From contig CAWDSS010000010.1 of NCBI GenBank assembly GCA_963805065.1, forward strand, positions 275,696 through 339,695: a stretch of 64,000 bases of DNA, in the 5' to 3' direction. Positions 3,914 through 12,653 of the stretch are shown here, piece by piece (position 1 is the first letter of the stretch; every line of letters begins with the position of its first letter). A program made the translations under genes and the position numbers. The DNA is from Candidatus Omnitrophota bacterium (GTDB taxonomy: Bacteria; Omnitrophota; Gorgyraeia; Gygaellales; Profunditerraquicolaceae). The notes beneath the pieces were generated by a model. The model did not search any database. It had not been told where the DNA came from and saw only the letters and a program-made list of their open reading frames with translations.

Positions 3914-4133
3914 CTTTCATTAGTATGGCTATGGAGGCACCAAAACACATTGTTTGCAATCGAAGATTCCAAATCACATTGATTTGGAATAGATTCTGCG
4001 CCACATTGGTGTTAAGATACCAAAACACATTGTTTTGGTATCTCCGTTATCTTTCATTAATGCAGCTATGGAGGCACCAAAATACATTATTTTGGTGCCG
4101 TAGCCTTTTTTCATTAATGAAAAAAGGCTACGG
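3914..4133 (-). repeat. tandem hairpin-repeat array 1 plus tRNA trailer hairpin (downstream of tRNA-Ser GGA)
   Basis: The palindromic units are 3941-3956 (degenerate), 3966-3990 (ATTCCAAATCACATTGATTTGGAAT), 4016-4042 (GATACCAAAACACATTGTTTTGGTATC) and 4073-4099 (GGCACCAAAATACATTATTTTGGTGCC). A degenerate ATTAAT hairpin lies at 4041-4072, and the perfect trailer palindrome is at 4098-4133. Confidence 0.85.
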
Positions 4134-4215: not shown

Positions 4216-4637
4216 AAAAAATTTTAATGTAAAATTTTTTGGATTCTGTAGGCAATGCTTAGATTAATCTAAGCATTGCCGCAAGAATCTCCAAAGTCGT
4301 TCGCTATTGCTTAATCAATACTTATCAGTAAACAAATAACAGTTGTTGCTTTATTTATTACGTAGCTTTATATTTTAGGACGCTCACTCCTCATAGGGGA
4401 AACCCGTTTGGTTTCCCCTGATGACGCTCTCCGCCAGCTGTTAGCTTTGGTCGCTGTCACCCCTTCCTTCGCAATTTAGAGAAACATCCTTAAGGGGAAA
4501 ACAATCTTTTCCCCTTAATAATCCCTTTTTTAGGTTTTTAACAACAGAACTTAAAACCACTTCTATTGTCCTGCTTCGCAGGATAGTTGTTAAAAACCTT
4601 TGTCGTTCGCTTGAGCTTTGTTTGTCAGATTACCAGA

Positions 4638-4753
4638 TCCTGAAATACATTATTTCAGGACTAAGATACCAAAACACATTGTTTTGGGACAAAGAAGCCA
4701 AAATACATTATTTTGGCTTCTCCGTGATTTTTCATTAATGAAAAATCACGGAG
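4638..4753 (-). repeat. tandem hairpin-repeat array 2 plus tRNA trailer hairpin (downstream of tRNA-Ser CGA)
   Basis: The units are 4638-4660 (TCCTGAAATACATTATTTCAGGA), 4669-4687 (CCAAAACACATTGTTTTGG) and 4694-4720 (GAAGCCAAAATACATTATTTTGGCTTC). The trailer palindrome is at 4720-4753 (CTCCGTGATTTTTCATTAATGAAAAATCACGGAG). Confidence 0.85.
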
Positions 4754-4835
4754 AGTGGAGGATTTGAACCTCCGGTCACCTTACGGCGACAACGGTTTTC
4801 GAAACCGCCGCATTCAACCGCTCTGCCAACTCTCC
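4749..4835 (-). tRNA. tRNA-Ser (anticodon CGA)
   Basis: The reverse complement reads GGAGAGT TG GCAGAGCGGTTGAATGC G GCGGT TTCGAAA ACCGT, then a long variable arm, then GGAGG TTCAAAT CCTCC ACTCTCC G. No CCA is encoded. Confidence 0.85.
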
Positions 4836-4869
4836 AGATTTATGAATACATACACGACTTTATCTGAAC

Positions 4870-5151
4870 TCAGCCTCTGAATACCAGTAAAAAAACTACT
4901 GAAGAAATAATACAGATTAATCCGACAATAACCCTTTTCTTTAATAGGCTTTCCTGAAAAGTATAAATCGTAGTCTCTAACTTAGGGATCATTATTTTTT
5001 TTAACCCAAAAATTTCTTTACCTAAAATACCTTCTAGTCTTCTGTATTTGTACTCGGCAATTAACAATAATACTCCCACTACAAAAACCACGGGGCTGAC
5101 GAATAATAACGCACTTTTCATGATATCGAAAATCGTTAATTCCGGAGCCAT
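4870..5151 (-). CDS. small membrane protein, two predicted TM helices, unknown function
   Basis: 93-aa ORF with hydrophobic segments ALLFVSPVVFVVGVLLLIA and VIVGLICIISSVVFLLVF. It lies between two tRNA-Ser genes. Confidence 0.45.
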   Translation of the reverse strand: MAPELTIFDIMKSALLFVSPVVFVVGVLLLIAEYKYRRLEGILGKEIFGLKKIMIPKLETTIYTFQESLLKKRVIVGLICIISSVVFLLVFRG

Positions 5152-5192
5152 TCTATACCTCCTTGCTTTGCTTGCGGATTAAAAGGTATCGA

Positions 5193-5350
5193 GGCACTGA
5201 AATACATTATTTCAGTTACGCAATAGGCACCAAAATACATTATTTTGGGTCTCAATAGGTACTAAAATATATTATTTTGGGCAACGATAGGCACTGAAAC
5301 ACATTGTTTCAGTGCCACCGCTTAGCTTCATTAATGAAGCTAAGCGGTGG
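5193..5350 (-). repeat. tandem hairpin-repeat array 3 plus tRNA trailer hairpin (downstream of tRNA-Ser TGA)
   Basis: Four units with a 32-33-nt period start at 5193, 5226, 5258 and 5290. One example is GGCACTGAAACACATTGTTTCAGTGCC at 5290-5316. The trailer palindrome is at 5315-5350 (CCACCGCTTAGCTTCATTAATGAAGCTAAGCGGTGG). Confidence 0.85.
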
Positions 5351-5433
5351 GGGTGAGATTTGAACTCACGGAGGGGAGAAATCCCCTCAACAGTTTTCAA
5401 GACTGCCGCTTTCAACCGCTCAGCCACCCCACC
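5345..5433 (-). tRNA. tRNA-Ser (anticodon TGA)
   Basis: The reverse complement reads GGTGGGG TG GCTGAGCGGTTGAAAGC G GCAGT CTTGAAA ACTGT, then a long variable arm, then GTGAG TTCAAAT CTCAC CCCCACC G. No CCA is encoded. Confidence 0.85.
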
Positions 5434-5543
5434 TATCCTGTTTTTCCCGCATCTATGAATTTTATTGTCGGGCGGGATCCCGCCTGTGATTTAATAGCCG
5501 AGCGGGACAAGACAAGCCCATTCGACCACTCTGGCACCCCACC
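5434..5543 (-). pseudogene. tRNA-like 5' half (class II, Ser-like) interrupted by a 63-nt twin-hairpin module and truncated after the anticodon stem
   Basis: The minus strand reads GGTGGGG TG CCA GAGTGGTCGAA TGG G CTTGT CTTG, then [TCCCGC-N18-GCGGGA][TCCCGC-N21-GCGGGA], then AAA ACAGG ATA, after which tRNA-Ser(TGA) begins. The variable arm, T arm and 3' acceptor strand are absent. Confidence 0.55.
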
Positions 5544-5551
5544 AGAACTAA

Positions 5552-6238
5552 TTATAAGAAAAGCTGTTTAAACACAGCATAAAATATACTCTCAGCCGAA
5601 AGGAATGCGCTGTTGAAGAAATTAACAAAGGAGAACTGTTTAAAAATGAAACTAAGGCTTAGGGAAAGCAGGATTAAATTGACTATAAAAATAAAAGAAA
5701 ACCCGAAAATGTAATTTGCTTTCAGGAAATCATTTTGTTTTGTCCGCACTGACTTTGCGCTGAATACCAAATGTAATGCCACACTGAAACTAAAAATAAA
5801 CAAGAAAAAATAAAAGAAATCTTTGGATTTAAAAATTAAAGAAAGCGGTAAGTACAAAATAAATACAATAATCGCATAGACCGGCAATACGAACGGCGCC
5901 ACCTTTACCAGAGGAGAAAAGAAACTGAATATAACCTCAAGCAGCCTGTGGCCTTTACGATAAATCGCTGCCGGTTCAAACACAAACAAATGTATGAGAA
6001 GAAAAGTTATTATGCCTGCCCAAAAATAACTTTGCGACGGTAAATCTATCAGCCCTAATTCTTTTAAAAATGATACCGATATCGAATATACGAACGGCAA
6101 AAGGCAAACCCCTAAGACAAATTTTATGATTCCAAACAACTTATCGGAAATTCCCGATATTCTGGAACGAGCACCCTCTAAAATCCTGGGACCCTCTTTT
6201 TTAGGAAGTTCTTTCTTAGGAAATTCTTTCTTTTCCAT
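5552..6238 (-). CDS. polytopic membrane protein, unknown function
   Basis: 228 aa. A lysine-rich N-terminus (KKEFPKKELPKKEGP) is followed by about 6 hydrophobic helices. The gene overlaps the serS 3' end by 23 nt. Confidence 0.5.
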   Translation of the reverse strand: MEKKEFPKKELPKKEGPRILEGARSRISGISDKLFGIIKFVLGVCLLPFVYSISVSFLKELGLIDLPSQSYFWAGIITFLLIHLFVFEPAAIYRKGHRLLEVIFSFFSPLVKVAPFVLPVYAIIVFILYLPLSLIFKSKDFFYFFLFIFSFSVALHLVFSAKSVRTKQNDFLKANYIFGFSFIFIVNLILLSLSLSFIFKQFSFVNFFNSAFLSAESIFYAVFKQLFL

Positions 6239-7484
6239 CTAAATATGTCCTTAAGACTTGCGGTATTATTACCGAGCCGTCTTTTTGTTGGTAGTTCTCA
6301 ATTATCGCTATCACTGTGCGCGCCAAAGCAATGCCTGAACCGTTGAGGGTATGTACAAAATCGATTTTCTTCGTGCCTTTTCTTCTGAATCTTATATTTG
6401 CCCTGCGTGCCTGGAAACCCTCAAAATTTGAACAACTGGATACTTCCAGCCACTTGTCCACTCCTGCGGCATATGCTTCAAGGTCATAGCATTTGCTTGC
6501 GGAAAAACTCAGATCTTCTGTAGATAACATTACTACCCGGTAAGGTAAACCCAATAATTGAAGTACCTCCTCTGCATCCTTGACTAATTTTTCCAACTCA
6601 TCATAAGAAGTCTCAGGCTTAACAAATTTAACCATTTCCACTTTATCAAACTGATGCACGCGCATAAGGCCTTTGGTATCTTTGCCGTATGAACCTGCCT
6701 CTCTTCTAAAGCATGCGGTATAAGCAGTATAATAAATAGGCAAGCTATCTTCGTCTAAAACTTCGTCCCGAAAGATATTTGTTACCGGCACTTCTGCGGT
6801 AGGAATTAAAAATAAATCGTCATCTTTTAAGCGGTACATATCTTCTTCCAGCTTGGGAAGCTGGCCTGTGCCGGTCATGGAAGCCCTGTTTACCAGAAAA
6901 GGTGGAAAAACTTCAGTATAGCCGTGTTTTTTGGTATGCAAGTCAAGCATGAAGTTTAATAATGCTCTTTCAAGTTTTGCACCCCAGCCTTTATAAAGAA
7001 TAAAATTTGAACCCGTGATTTTTGCCGCGCGGTTAAAATCAATTATATCCAGATGCTGGCTAAGTTCTATATGGCTAAGCGGCTGGTAATCAAATTTTGG
7101 CAAATCGCCCCACGAGCGCACAGTTTCTTTTTTTGAATGATCTCCGATAGGAATGGTTGAATCTGGTACATTAGGAATAGTTAACAATATTTTATCTAAC
7201 TCGGTTTCTGCTTGTTTTAATTTGTCTTCCAGTTGATCTATTTTATTTGAAATCTCCTTCATTGAGTAAATTTTTGCTTTTGCATCTTTTTTCTCTTTTA
7301 ATAGGCCGGTGATTTCATCGTTTGCCTTGTTCCTTTTTGCCCTTAACTCTTCCAATTCAACCAGGGCCTGCCTTCGCGCATCATCAACTTTCAACAAGGC
7401 AGATAAATCTAGCTTGAGATTACGGTTGTTCAAAGACTGCTTTACTAAATCCTGATTTTCGCGAATGAATTTTATGTCTAACAT
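6216..7484 (-). CDS. serS: seryl-tRNA synthetase
   Basis: 422 aa. It has an N-terminal coiled-coil tRNA-binding arm (MLDIKFIRENQDLV...) and class II core motifs (FRREAGSYGKDTKGLMRVHQF, TLNGSGIALARTV). Confidence 0.95.
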   Translation of the reverse strand: MLDIKFIRENQDLVKQSLNNRNLKLDLSALLKVDDARRQALVELEELRAKRNKANDEITGLLKEKKDAKAKIYSMKEISNKIDQLEDKLKQAETELDKILLTIPNVPDSTIPIGDHSKKETVRSWGDLPKFDYQPLSHIELSQHLDIIDFNRAAKITGSNFILYKGWGAKLERALLNFMLDLHTKKHGYTEVFPPFLVNRASMTGTGQLPKLEEDMYRLKDDDLFLIPTAEVPVTNIFRDEVLDEDSLPIYYTAYTACFRREAGSYGKDTKGLMRVHQFDKVEMVKFVKPETSYDELEKLVKDAEEVLQLLGLPYRVVMLSTEDLSFSASKCYDLEAYAAGVDKWLEVSSCSNFEGFQARRANIRFRRKGTKKIDFVHTLNGSGIALARTVIAIIENYQQKDGSVIIPQVLRTYLDGKERIS

Positions 7485-7485
7485 T

Positions 7486-8946
7486 TTATCCTTTTATTAC
7501 TCCTAATGGTCGCATCCTGCAGACGCGCTTGGAAATACCCACATTATGCACTACATCCACCACATCATTAATATCTTTATAAGCCTGGGGAGCCTCTTCT
7601 ACAATAGTGCCTCTGCCCGACGCTTTAACAATTATACCCTTAGATTCCAATTCTTTCAACAACATATTCAAGTCAATAGACTTAGTGGCAGATGTGCGCG
7701 ATTTTAGTCTTCCTGCGCCATGACAGGTAGAATAAAAGGTTTCTTCGGCTTTTGCAGTACCTACCAACAGATAGGAATTTCTTCCCATATCTCCGGGTAT
7801 AATCACAGGCTGGCCTGTTTTTTTATACCTCTGTGGCAATGCAGGATGCCCCGGGCCAAAAGCTCGCGTTGCTCCTTTTCTATGCACGCACAGCGATTTC
7901 TCCTTGCCATCAATTTTATATTTTTCAATTTTCGCAATATTATGTGCTACATCATAAATCAGAAACATTCCCAATTTCTGCCACGACGCTCCAAAAATAC
8001 GCTCAAAAGATTTACGCGTAAGATGCATCAGGCACTGACGGTTATTCCAGGCATAATTAGCAGCGCACTTCATAGCTGCCAAATATTGTTTACCTTCGGC
8101 AGAATTTACCGGAGCGCAGGCAAGCTGCCTGTCAGGTACATTGATATTGTATTTCTGAAGGCAATGAACCATGTTCTTTACATATTCATCGCATATCTGA
8201 TAGCCGAAACCCCGCGAGCCGGAATGGATCATCACTGTAACCTGGCCTAGATTAAGCCCGAATTCATCACAACAATCCCTATCGTAAAGTTGATCGATGA
8301 CTTGAACCTCAAGAAAATGATTTCCCGAACCCAGGGTCCCTGATTGCGCCTTTCCCCTTTCATAAGCCCTGTCTGAAACAGCATCGGGATCAGCGCCTTG
8401 TATTGCGCCATTTTCTTCAGTGCATTCCAAATCTTCCTGTGTCCCGTAACCTTTTTCTACCGCCCACTGAGAGCCTTTTACCAGAATTTCTTTTTCTTCT
8501 CTTGCGCTGACCCTGATATCGCCTTTTGAACCCACGCCAGAAGGCACATCAGAAAACAATGCATAAACTAAATCTTTGATTTTATCCTTTATTTCATCAT
8601 ACTGAAAATTAGTTTTTAATAATCTAATGCCGCAATTTATGTCATAGCCGACGCCTCCGGGAGAAATCACTCCGCCGTTTTCAATATCAGTCGCAGCTAC
8701 CCCTCCTATCGGAAAACCATAGCCCCAATGTATATCAGGCATGGCTAACGACGCATTTACAATTCCCGGTAAAAATGCCACATTAGCCACCTGCTGGGCT
8801 GCTTTGTCGTTACGGATATCCTTTAATAATTTCTCGTCTGCATAGATTATCCCCGGAACACGCATACCAGGCTGGTATGACTTAGGTATGCGCCAGCGAT
8901 AATCATCAATTTTCTCTAAAGGTCCATTCCAAACCTCAGACATCAA
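7486..8946 (-). CDS. rtcB: RNA 3'-phosphate/5'-OH ligase RtcB
   Basis: 486 aa with RtcB signature segments: GYDINCG, GSGNHFLEVQ, HSGSRGFG, CHGAGR and PLGVIKG at the C-terminus. Confidence 0.93.
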   Translation of the reverse strand: MMSEVWNGPLEKIDDYRWRIPKSYQPGMRVPGIIYADEKLLKDIRNDKAAQQVANVAFLPGIVNASLAMPDIHWGYGFPIGGVAATDIENGGVISPGGVGYDINCGIRLLKTNFQYDEIKDKIKDLVYALFSDVPSGVGSKGDIRVSAREEKEILVKGSQWAVEKGYGTQEDLECTEENGAIQGADPDAVSDRAYERGKAQSGTLGSGNHFLEVQVIDQLYDRDCCDEFGLNLGQVTVMIHSGSRGFGYQICDEYVKNMVHCLQKYNINVPDRQLACAPVNSAEGKQYLAAMKCAANYAWNNRQCLMHLTRKSFERIFGASWQKLGMFLIYDVAHNIAKIEKYKIDGKEKSLCVHRKGATRAFGPGHPALPQRYKKTGQPVIIPGDMGRNSYLLVGTAKAEETFYSTCHGAGRLKSRTSATKSIDLNMLLKELESKGIIVKASGRGTIVEEAPQAYKDINDVVDVVHNVGISKRVCRMRPLGVIKG

Positions 8947-9352
8947 AAATCACCTCTGCCATCCAGCCGGAATCCGACTGTTCCAATTTCAATTCATGAT
9001 AAGTAGCTGCCTTTATCTCGGTATTTACTTTATAATTTTTCATGTCGCTGCCTGCAACAACAGCCTCCAGGCTATGCTTATCTATTTTGTTTATCTTAAA
9101 ATCGCAAAATATCAGCGCCTTGGCAGCGGATAAAGACAATAATTCATTCAGCCAATTAACAAAAAGCTCATCAATATTATCCGCGCTCTGCTTAATTTGG
9201 ATTTGGTTGACTTTCTTAGCGCAATGCCCTGATTCTTCAGCCATAATGTCAAACATCGCGCGGGCAGTTTTTCGAAATAATTCTTCCAGGCTAGCCGCTG
9301 TTATTTTGACGCCTACGTCTGCGGTATGCTCGATCAGCTCATAATCCTTCAT
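8936..9352 (-). CDS. archease (RtcB activator family)
   Basis: The ORF track starts at 9373, but that ATG lies inside the tRNA-Lys acceptor stem/CCA. The second Met (MKDYELIEHTADVGVKI...) gives the canonical archease N-terminus. The gene overlaps the rtcB start by 11 nt. Confidence 0.8.
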   Translation of the reverse strand: MKDYELIEHTADVGVKITAASLEELFRKTARAMFDIMAEESGHCAKKVNQIQIKQSADNIDELFVNWLNELLSLSAAKALIFCDFKINKIDKHSLEAVVAGSDMKNYKVNTEIKAATYHELKLEQSDSGWMAEVIFDV

Positions 9353-9362
9353 GGGAGGGAAA

Positions 9363-9438
9363 TGGTGGGCCATGTAGGAGTCGGACCTACGACCTTGACA
9401 TTAAGAGTGTCCTGCTCTGCCAATTGAGCTAATGGCCC
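9363..9438 (-). tRNA. tRNA-Lys (anticodon CTT), CCA encoded
   Basis: The reverse complement reads GGGCCAT TA GCTC AATTGGCA GAGC A GGACA CTCTTAA TGTCA AGGTC GTAGG TCCGACT CCTAC ATGGCCC A CCA. It has an unusual C at T-loop position 55. Confidence 0.75.
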
Positions 9439-9640
9439 TAAAATCTAGGTTTTTATACCAGCCATTAGCGAAATGCCCGCTAGGGTATGAGCTAATGGCC
9501 CTGATTATTTGTTAGTGTAGTAAAGAGTATATCTTAGATAAAAAACTAAATCAAGGAAATTGTTACACAGAAATAGCTAGTGTCCAAATATTATCCATAT
9601 ATAACTACGCTGCTCGTTGTAAACAGATAAAATCTAGTTA

Positions 9641-12522: not shown

Positions 12523-12653
12523 TGCGCCTGGCAGGAGTTGAACCTGCAACGCCTAGCTCCGAAGGCTAGCGCTCTATCCAGTTGTCCCGCTATATCATTT
12601 AGTTCCGCTAGCGGGATCCCGCCTGCTATGGAATAGCTTGGCGGGAAGCTACA
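12523..12653 (-). pseudogene. tRNA-Arg-like gene (anticodon TCG) interrupted in the D arm by a 62-nt twin-hairpin module, with a decayed 5' acceptor strand
   Basis: The minus strand reads ..TG TA GCT, then [TCCCGCC-N16-GGCGGGA][TCCCGCTA-N16-TAGCGGGA], then C AACTGGATA GAGC G CTAGC CTTCGGA GCTAG GCGTT GCAGG TTCAACT CCTGC CAGGCGC A. The 7 nt that should pair with CAGGCGC read TTGAATG, giving only 4 of 7 pairs. Confidence 0.55.

Follow-up and report, generated by a model that had tools for sequence, protein, structure and literature searches.

Rickettsia palindromic elements (RPEs) are short, non-coding, hairpin-forming sequences present in many copies, which lie between genes, within RNA genes or inside protein genes; in the last case the reading frame is kept and the protein gains a peptide. 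Orthologues retain copies at the same position. Repetitive extragenic palindromic (REP) sequences and the REPINs built from them consist of hairpin units of about 30 nt, show compensatory changes in their stems and have a mobile form that resembles an inverted doublet. The element described here was found in a 64,000-nt stretch of a 1.19-Mb contig from a Candidatus Omnitrophota bacterium (the window), where a 63-nt twin-hairpin module interrupts the anticodon loop of a partial tRNA-Ser gene (the stub) on the minus strand, at positions 5434–5543. This 110-nt segment is probably a non-functional pseudogene stub that carries a mobile palindromic element and lies beside a functional replacement, and by analogy the element would work most like RPEs and REP/REPIN repeats. 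It has the RPE traits just listed, the two being set side by side by description and not by RPE sequence, and it differs from RPEs in its sequence, in being a twin-hairpin doublet with a GCGGGATCCCGC centre, in its bias towards tRNA loops with partial duplication of the tRNA, in its link to GIY-YIG nuclease genes and in its hosts, which are Omnitrophota and members of the candidate phyla radiation (CPR). With REP/REPIN repeats it shares the size of the hairpin units, the doublet-like form and the compensatory stem changes, and in several copies the second loop resembles the reverse complement of the first, as in REPINs; unlike those repeats, its hairpins abut without a spacer, have no GTAG-type REP head and lie inside tRNA loops accompanied by a part-duplicate of the tRNA.

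Partial tRNA copies beside an intact gene, with breakpoints in stem-loops, are also a feature of tRNA attachment (att) sites, and tRNA-targeted integration has its crossovers in the anticodon or T stem-loops. The loci described here differ from att sites in having no integrase and no kilobase-sized element, in carrying the module inside the loop and in forming tandem arrays. Split or intron-containing tRNAs of archaea, and group I introns of bacteria, resemble these loci in having an insert in the anticodon loop (in the D and T loops in related loci), with RtcB nearby; in contrast to the archaeal genes, the interrupted copy is always incomplete, no bulge–helix–bulge is formed and an intact gene is adjacent. 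A further parallel is provided by T4 SegB, a free-standing GIY-YIG homing endonuclease that is reported to sit among tRNA genes (PMC2330249), to cut within the tRNA gene region and to drive the inheritance, even the amplification, of its neighbourhood (PMC2330249, PMC13096335). The fuller units found in related genomes are similar to SegB in that a small GIY-YIG gene stands beside tRNA genes. They differ in that the predicted nucleases are of about 80–90 amino acids, comprise a catalytic domain only, are UPF0213-like, are found in cellular genomes and are tied to a palindromic module with a built-in duplicate of the displaced tRNA part.

Read on the minus strand, the segment begins with the 36-nt tRNA-like stretch GGTGGGGTGCCAGAGTGGTCGAATGGGCTTGTCTTG (5543→5508), which was confirmed by direct reading of the window and is unique. 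This stretch comprises nt 1–36 of a former tRNA-Ser(UGA), namely the acceptor 5′ strand, a class-II D arm, the anticodon-stem 5′ strand and the loop nucleotides CTTG. The module (5445–5507) is inserted at CTTG|AAA of the anticodon loop and is made up of two hairpins, TCCCGC-N18-GCGGGA (5507→5478) and TCCCGC-N21-GCGGGA (5477→5445), located by a pattern search in which the hairpin pattern gave four matches in the window against 0.01 expected. It is followed by AAAACAGG (5444→5437), which represents nt 37–44 of the old tRNA-Ser, that is, the rest of the anticodon loop and the 3′ strand of the stem. The 3-nt spacer ATA (5434–5436) then leads to an intact, functional-looking tRNA-Ser(UGA) of a different sequence type (5433→5344, anticodon TGA in DNA), called by ARAGORN and by Rfam at 60.1 bits. 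A preliminary description of the window had given all of these parts correctly, including the 3-nt distance to the intact tRNA; it placed the stub 9 nt past the stop of the gene at 5552–6238, a distance that is in fact 8 nt, measured from the TAA stop at 5554–5552. This gene, orf228, is on the minus strand and encodes a conserved Omnitrophota protein for which no Pfam or NCBIfam family was matched, and the tRNA-Ser gene originally lay just past its stop.

Also upheld is the statement that excising the module would rebuild a CU-UGA-AA anticodon loop, since CTTGT and ACAGG close the loop and the flanks align across the junction. It likewise holds that no variable arm, T arm or 3′ acceptor strand lies past the stub: the old gene stops after nt 44, directly past the anticodon stem. 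ARAGORN and Rfam RF00005 called six tRNAs in the window, the stub not among them, and neither stub nor module gave any Rfam match over 5434–5543 at gathering or permissive (E ≤ 10) thresholds. The D arm of the stub reads CCAGAGUGGUCGAAUGG, with the stem CCA/TGG, whereas that of the adjacent intact tRNA-Ser(UGA) reads GCUGAGCGGUUGAAAGC, with the stem GCT/AGC. In the same way, the ACAGG of AAAACAGG pairs with the CTTGT of the stub and does not match the anticodon stem of the intact gene, GCAGT/ACTGT. Both stems of the stub are thus internally paired yet unlike those of its neighbour, and the stub therefore descends from a working tRNA of another type and not from the random decay of a duplicate.

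This other type is found intact in metagenomes. A scan with the first 26 nt of the stub (acceptor strand and D arm) matched 24 loci, about 15 of which hold an intact tRNA-Ser(UGA) that has exactly these 26 nt, continues with GCCTGTCTTGAAAACAGG and reads ...GGGCCTGTCTTGAAAACAGG...; an orf228 homologue lies directly upstream in at least 10 of these roughly 15 contigs. When the flanks of the module are joined (5508–5543 plus 5437–5444), they align to nt 1–45 of the intact metagenomic tRNA with a single mismatch, a C→T change in the stub, because of which an exact 27-mer spanning the D arm and anticodon stem had no match in the metagenomes. These data support the first of the two readings offered in the preliminary description, a tRNA gene, now dead, into which a small palindromic mobile element was inserted: the stub is the remnant of a real tRNA-Ser(UGA) type and the insert a multi-copy sequence.

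For the conserved Omnitrophota protein orf228, 880 homologues were found; its identity to the window protein is 75% in L119, 68% in L121, 63% in L123 and 51% in L126 (L numbers denote loci from other genomes and contigs). In L119, L121 and L123 a single intact tRNA-Ser(UGA) lies 9–45 nt past orf228, without stub or module, and the gene order archease–RtcB–SerRS–orf228 is retained, except that the L121 sequence begins within RtcB, so that archease is not seen there. The intact tRNA-Ser(UGA) of the window shows two differences from the tRNA at the same place in L119, and it probably supplies the function of the broken copy. L126 carries the stub, a degenerate module, AAAACAGG and, without the ATA spacer, an intact tRNA of the GCAGT type; its module has kept a TCCCGA...TCGGGA hairpin and lost the other, H1. 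Relative to orf228 the distribution is patchy, as expected if the arrangement spread laterally or if a conserved target was entered more than once, and if some lineages later lost it. The stub itself is probably without function and would at most be transcribed as a leader RNA, removed by the 5′ cut of RNase P at the intact tRNA.

The module belongs to a family that is apparently undescribed and recurs in tRNA-gene loops across Omnitrophota. One genome per species was scanned with the pattern TCCCGC-N14-26-GCGGGATCCCGC-N14-26-GCGGGA, and the matches listed, to which all counts below refer, comprise at least 118 loci with the exact pattern, against about 0.3 expected by chance (our own estimate for 24 fixed bases), and 126 modules including those of the window. 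The records of nearly all listed matches name Omnitrophota or Omnitrophica or are third-party bins under the label Planctomycetales or Planctomycetia; a minority belong to Uhrbacteria, Kerfeldbacteria and other Patescibacteria (CPR), and a single match in Brachybacterium looks like chance. At least two modules (at about 1,799,685 and 1,724,481) are present in the complete genome of Ca. Velamenicoccus archaeovorus LiM (NZ_CP019384). No match to the pattern was obtained among the IMG/VR viral contigs, and the module is therefore not evidently phage-borne. Full-text literature, including Omnitrophota genome papers, yielded no account of the module or of units of GIY-YIG genes and tRNA fragments in these phyla, most subscription journals lying outside the coverage of that search.

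Modules are about 62 nt long, with stems of 6–7 bp and loop sequences that vary widely, and subfamilies exist. Copies that are 93–100% identical occur at unrelated sites with different flanks. Where a hairpin is changed in both arms, the change is exactly compensated in 12 of 18 cases, against about 1 of 18 by chance (for example, TCCCGA/TCGGGA, TCCCAC/GTGGGA and CCCCGC/GCGGGG), and in these variants the first two arms pair with each other, as do the third and the fourth, which corresponds to the twin-hairpin fold. The stems are thus held by a pairing constraint, and the module therefore acts as a folded single strand of DNA or RNA. Inspection by eye of the loop sequences as possible guides revealed no pattern of match or complement to the adjacent tRNA; the start CAAGC is recurrent in one of the module loops.

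The insertion sites share the flank preference TTN|module|NAA, with T in 63% and 78% at positions −3 and −2 and A in 81% and 67% at +2 and +3. Joined across the module, the flanks form an uninterrupted stretch of tRNA for 46 of the 126 modules, compared with 1 of 234 shifted controls, in an alignment to a small tRNA library built from the same loci. The junctions fall in the D loop (15 modules; nt 12–14), the anticodon loop (11; nt 30–39) and the T loop (20; nt 54–58, or 65 in class II tRNAs). The near-universal T loop, TTCRAAT, opened as TTC|RAAT, fits the preference, and so do the anticodon loops CTTG|AAA of Ser-UGA, CTTC|CAA of Gly-UCC and TTTT|CAA of Glu-UUC. Pairing between the flanks beyond TTN|NAA, counted as four or more pairs, occurs in 59% of cases against 49% in the control; as this is only slightly above control, general targeting of hairpin loops was rejected, and the target looks sequence-based rather than structure-based. 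The tRNA sequence is continuous across the module, without repeated bases; a classical miniature inverted-repeat transposable element was rejected, there being no target-site duplication.

Outside tRNA genes, 11 of 124 modules lie in frame within long open reading frames (ORFs), all with lengths divisible by 3, and occupy the same site in orthologues from different genomes. As read from the flanking residues, the host proteins are TatD-like in L012 (769), L057 (2408), L077 (305) and L080 (2324) and macro-domain-like in L073 (5969) and L094 (5743); further in-frame modules are present in L007, L027, L036, L071 and L115. They add peptides such as YPARVSNSGRDPASGNKMAQRD or SRRVYKIKGGIPPTVKEKWAGK. 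Other modules are located in AT-rich spacers or at the tips of non-tRNA hairpins. The family thus shows the features of a short palindromic mobile repeat: copies at unrelated sites, conserved pairing and in-frame occurrence.

A second module copy, absent from the preliminary description and made up of the other two of the four hairpin matches, lies about 7 kb from the first, at 12585–12646, in the same orientation, and a relaxed pattern allowing mismatches detected no further copies in the 64-kb window. On the minus strand this locus consists of an intact tRNA-Arg(UCG) (12734→12660; TCG in DNA), the spacer TTTGAA, the heptamer TGTAGCT (12647–12653), the module, and a 62-nt remnant of an older tRNA-Arg(UCG) that runs from nt 13 to the 3′ end (12523–12584). 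The remnant holds the D loop, the anticodon arm with TCG, the T arm and the 3′ strand CAGGCGCA; it is 97% identical over its 62 nt to the intact tRNA-Arg(TCG) of L026, of which TGTAGCT is nt 6–12, so that the module is placed at the boundary of D stem and D loop, GCT|CAA. The Arg module folds as a clean twin hairpin (DNA, −19.3 kcal/mol, z = −4.8) and is 84% identical to the module inside the TatD-like ORF of L077, where the 95th percentile of random pairs is 77%. With its order of intact tRNA, a few nucleotides of the old tRNA, module and rest of the old tRNA, the Arg locus is the mirror image of the Ser locus.

These two arrangements recur. In layout A, as at the Arg locus, an intact tRNA and a spacer are followed by 5–10 nt ending in a loop, the module and the rest of the tRNA to its 3′ end; in layout B, as at the Ser locus, the tRNA 5′ part up to the loop is followed by the module, 6–10 nt that are often just the 3′ strand of a stem, a spacer and the intact tRNA. 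Among the cases inspected, every module within 70 nt of a tRNA has next to it a complete gene for that tRNA or for a closely related one, and every module-bearing copy with inspected flanks is truncated. The partial and intact copies are identical over 34 nt in L005, 65 nt in L025 and 57 nt in L035, a sign that these events are recent. Identical units stand in tandem in L014, L079, L069 and L104.

A nuclease gene forms part of some of these units. In 12 loci an ORF of about 80–90 codons starts 16–52 nt past the module and reaches the intact tRNA (Glu, Asp or Thr), and 12 of the 16 GIY-YIG matches in the loci start at this distance from a module; in the 11 loci viewed in detail, the order is always remnant, module, a few nucleotides of tRNA, ORF and intact tRNA. 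The ORFs match the Pfam GIY-YIG family (E about 1e-15) over a catalytic domain only, with UPF0213 proteins as the nearest solved relatives and weak similarity to group I intron endonucleases. GIY-YIG is the commonest family among the 138 ORFs next to modules, in which no integrase, transposase or RAYT (REP-associated tyrosine transposase) family is recurrent; Y1/HUH (RAYT) proteins are absent from the 25 most frequent families in these ORFs, whole genomes not having been searched. A small, apparently vertically kept nuclease gene flanked by repeats resembles the relationship between RAYTs and REPINs. In the L069 array, the short spacers retain the last ~35 nt (the 3′ end) of the ORF-bearing spacer, and short units can therefore arise from long ones by deletion. 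Since GIY-YIG genes lie in the spacers of 12 loci and short spacers are possible deletion derivatives, the full unit is probably a selfish cassette of homing-endonuclease type.

For the origin of a partial copy, module and intact copy in this arrangement, one route is put forward tentatively, as a possibility somewhat short of even. A module in an essential single-copy tRNA gene would survive only with a second intact copy of the displaced part alongside. Layouts A and B would be the product of a single-crossover or gene-conversion insertion through homology within the tRNA, provided that a tRNA copy interrupted by the module was present on the incoming DNA or on a sister molecule. Such an insertion would regenerate an intact target, so that repeated events would build tandem arrays. 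A first cut by the GIY-YIG nuclease, either in module-free alleles or in the module, may set these events going, with the nuclease acting in cis or in trans, and the two copies in the window would be versions of the cassette without the nuclease gene. Taken further, the module and the small GIY-YIG gene might represent a new type of selfish element that colonizes tRNA loops at TTN|NAA and carries or creates a duplicate of the displaced part, so that the host survives, in effect a homing cassette that repairs its own target, with nuclease-less copies and free modules in protein genes as its non-autonomous offspring across Omnitrophota and CPR; this broader proposal is speculative and, on the present evidence, rather unlikely.

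Alternative explanations of the locus differ in what they make of the partial tRNA. In the second reading of the preliminary description, the stub had been considered as one half of a split or intron-containing tRNA; as a 5′ half, it would be joined to its partner by the nearby RtcB with archease. In favour of this are the closed CU-UGA-AA loop that exact excision gives, as described above, the location of RtcB and archease 2–4 kb upstream on the same strand, and the presence of modules in the D, anticodon and T loops, which is reminiscent of non-canonical intron sites in archaea. However, relatives that lack stub and module keep the archease–RtcB–SerRS–orf228–tRNA-Ser order, so that the RtcB neighbourhood is ordinary synteny and does not tie the ligase to the stub. 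A variable arm, a T arm and a 3′ acceptor strand are missing, and a search of the window for a matching 3′ half returned the intact gene only, which lies 3 nt away. When each of the 126 modules was removed, with ±3 nt of slack at each end, and ARAGORN was rerun, no credible tRNA was restored (0 of 126); the single call, at the Arg locus of the window, was spurious, its poor acceptor stem being completed with the 3′ end of the adjacent tRNA. In none of the sampled loci, therefore, is the module an intron of a functioning gene. The junction of stub and insert consists of the CTTGT/ACAGG stem, an internal loop of 4 and 3 nt and the 6-bp helix TCCCGC/GCGGGA, which is not a 3-4-3 bulge–helix–bulge, no Rfam intron family was matched, and Rfam RF00005 and ARAGORN did not call the stub as a tRNA. 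Occurrence of the module at many non-tRNA sites, which the preliminary description had named as counting against this reading, was found, including in-frame copies in protein genes. A split or spliced tRNA-Ser is accordingly extremely improbable. A group I intron was rejected, the insert having 63 nt against the roughly 200 nt or more of the ribozyme core, with no Rfam match over 5434–5543.

Integration at tRNA genes classically leaves a partial tRNA duplicate next to an intact tRNA, and a short flank that is often exactly one stem strand would resemble a core site, as expected of an attL/attR-type scar from a tyrosine-recombinase element of which almost nothing now remains. Such a scar is nevertheless quite improbable: there is no integrase or recombinase near either locus of the window, nor is one recurrent among the 138 module-adjoining ORFs; what lies between the repeats amounts to only 3–65 nt, or about 300 nt with a GIY-YIG gene; the module sits inside the loop, where the crossover region should be continuous; and identical units form tandem arrays, while modules are also found at non-tRNA sites and in ORFs. 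Use by the host, whether as a signal for the processing or insulation of tRNA transcripts, as a site of protein binding or recombination, or as a tRNA fragment serving as a decoy, would accommodate the pairing constraint on the stems, the near identity of the stub in the window and in distant L126, the persistence of in-frame copies at the same site in orthologous proteins and the recurrence of the tRNA-Glu and GIY-YIG arrangement in 10 loci, though with GIY-YIG proteins only ~52–67% identical. It is improbable all the same, given that the closest relatives, L119, L121 and L123, have no module at this locus, that loops are hypervariable and copies decay (the loss of H1 in L126, the C→T change in the stub, the weak fold of the Ser copy), that the sites are heterogeneous (three tRNA loops, ORFs and AT-rich spacers), and that selfish spread typically produces tandem arrays and nearly identical copies at unrelated sites, as seen here.

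Several observations weigh against the preferred reading of a pseudogene stub with a mobile element, or against the proposed link of that element to the nuclease. The stub is almost unchanged between the window and L126 while the module has strongly diverged; near-unchanged stubs fit independent recent insertions into a conserved tRNA, and could also mean constraint on the stub. The Ser module folds no better than its shuffles (z = −0.46 as DNA and −0.07 as RNA), which suggests a decaying copy; the twin-hairpin fold is supported by the Arg copy and by the compensated stems. The D-loop junctions (GTCT|AGCC and GCT|CAA) fit TTN|NAA poorly, and the regularity with which the short flank beside the module is one stem strand only (5–10 nt) is not fully explained by selection on random duplications; a flank of stem length may be a requirement of the module's own mobility. 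No GIY-YIG gene was detected in the 64-kb window by tblastn, so any nuclease would act in trans or the copies are fossils; with GIY-YIG genes in 12 related loci and none in the window, the window copies are at most ORF-less derivatives. GIY-YIG genes also stand beside tRNAs without a module (L020 and L110), and the module and the GIY-YIG gene could be two independent tRNA-seeking elements.

The surroundings of the stub show further features. The archease–RtcB–SerRS–orf228 order followed by a tRNA-Ser cluster, with a tRNA-Lys just upstream of or overlapping the archease start, is seen in the window (6216–9373), L119, L123 and L124, and the clustering of an RNA ligase with SerRS and tRNA-Ser genes may have a meaning of its own. 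In L121, RtcB contains an intein (1–2686; 994 amino acids, Intein_splicing), and a 334-residue LAGLIDADG-type ORF (4829–5833) lies directly past tRNA-Ser(UGA), another sign of the locus drawing homing-type elements. Upstream of tRNA-Lys(CTT) (9363–9438) in the window, at 9439–9501 on the minus strand, 14 nt from the 5′ end of the tRNA-Lys, reaching to the D loop, are repeated (GGGCCATTAGCTCA), and a 49-nt insert follows that contains GCGGGCATTTCGC and is able to pair back on this partial copy; GCGGGCATTTCGC may be a decayed module centre. In L119 the identical tRNA-Lys has neither the partial copy nor the insert upstream.

Each of the three tRNA-Ser genes is followed on the minus strand by a perfect 36-nt palindrome (5315–5350, 4719–4754 and 4098–4133) that starts inside the acceptor 3′ strand and has the centre TTCATTAATGAA. 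The L119 orthologue retains it with compensatory changes (CCACCGCCAAGTTTCATTCATGAAACTTGGCGGTGG), and it may be a 3′-processing or termination structure that sequesters the tRNA 3′ end. Past each palindrome (~5190–5315, ~4650–4720 and ~4075–4100) are one to five tandem hairpins of ~33 nt, with stems such as CACCAAAA/TTTTGGTG and the conserved loop A(A/C)AATGT(A/G)TTT, for which no Rfam match was found; five of them stand in a row past Ser-UGA in L119 (4800–4950). Between tRNA-Ser(CGA) and tRNA-Ser(GGA), at ~4360–4640 on the minus strand, the window has about 330 nt more than the L119 spacer, with several GC-rich hairpins (for example, GGGGAAAAGATTGTTTTCCCC and GGGGAAACCAAACGGGTTTCCCC), no ORF of 60 or more amino acids and no Rfam match.

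Other hairpin modules occupy partial tRNA-Arg, -Glu and -Tyr copies beside intact genes in L123 (360–470), L133 (3700–3780), L042 (1690–2330), L053 (7500–7700), L104 (3720–3900) and L110 (4455–4560). Their types include CTCGGGATCCGCC...GGCGAGGGGCGGA, a ~115-nt twin hairpin, TCCCGTC...GACGGGA variants and single-hairpin units; evidently, the tRNA loci of these genomes attract elements of many such kinds. L041, from an unclassified, possibly CPR bin, carries two identical 54-nt modules (228–281 and 4974–5027) with reverse-complementary flanks, as inverted repeats 4.7 kb apart, which may be the ends of a larger composite element.

The locus accordingly contains no bacterial split tRNA and gives no case of RtcB-dependent tRNA splicing, and the stub is to be annotated as a pseudogene fragment. 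Such tRNA fragments can confuse tRNA counts and completeness estimates of metagenome-assembled genomes. What the locus reveals instead is a phylum-wide palindromic element that is found again and again in the D, anticodon and T loops of tRNA genes and is tolerated in frame in conserved proteins. If the link to the nuclease is true, it would provide a candidate function for part of the large uncharacterized UPF0213-type GIY-YIG family, would add a new example of selfish DNA that exploits essential genes without killing its host, and would account for the runs of tRNA fragments seen in these small genomes.

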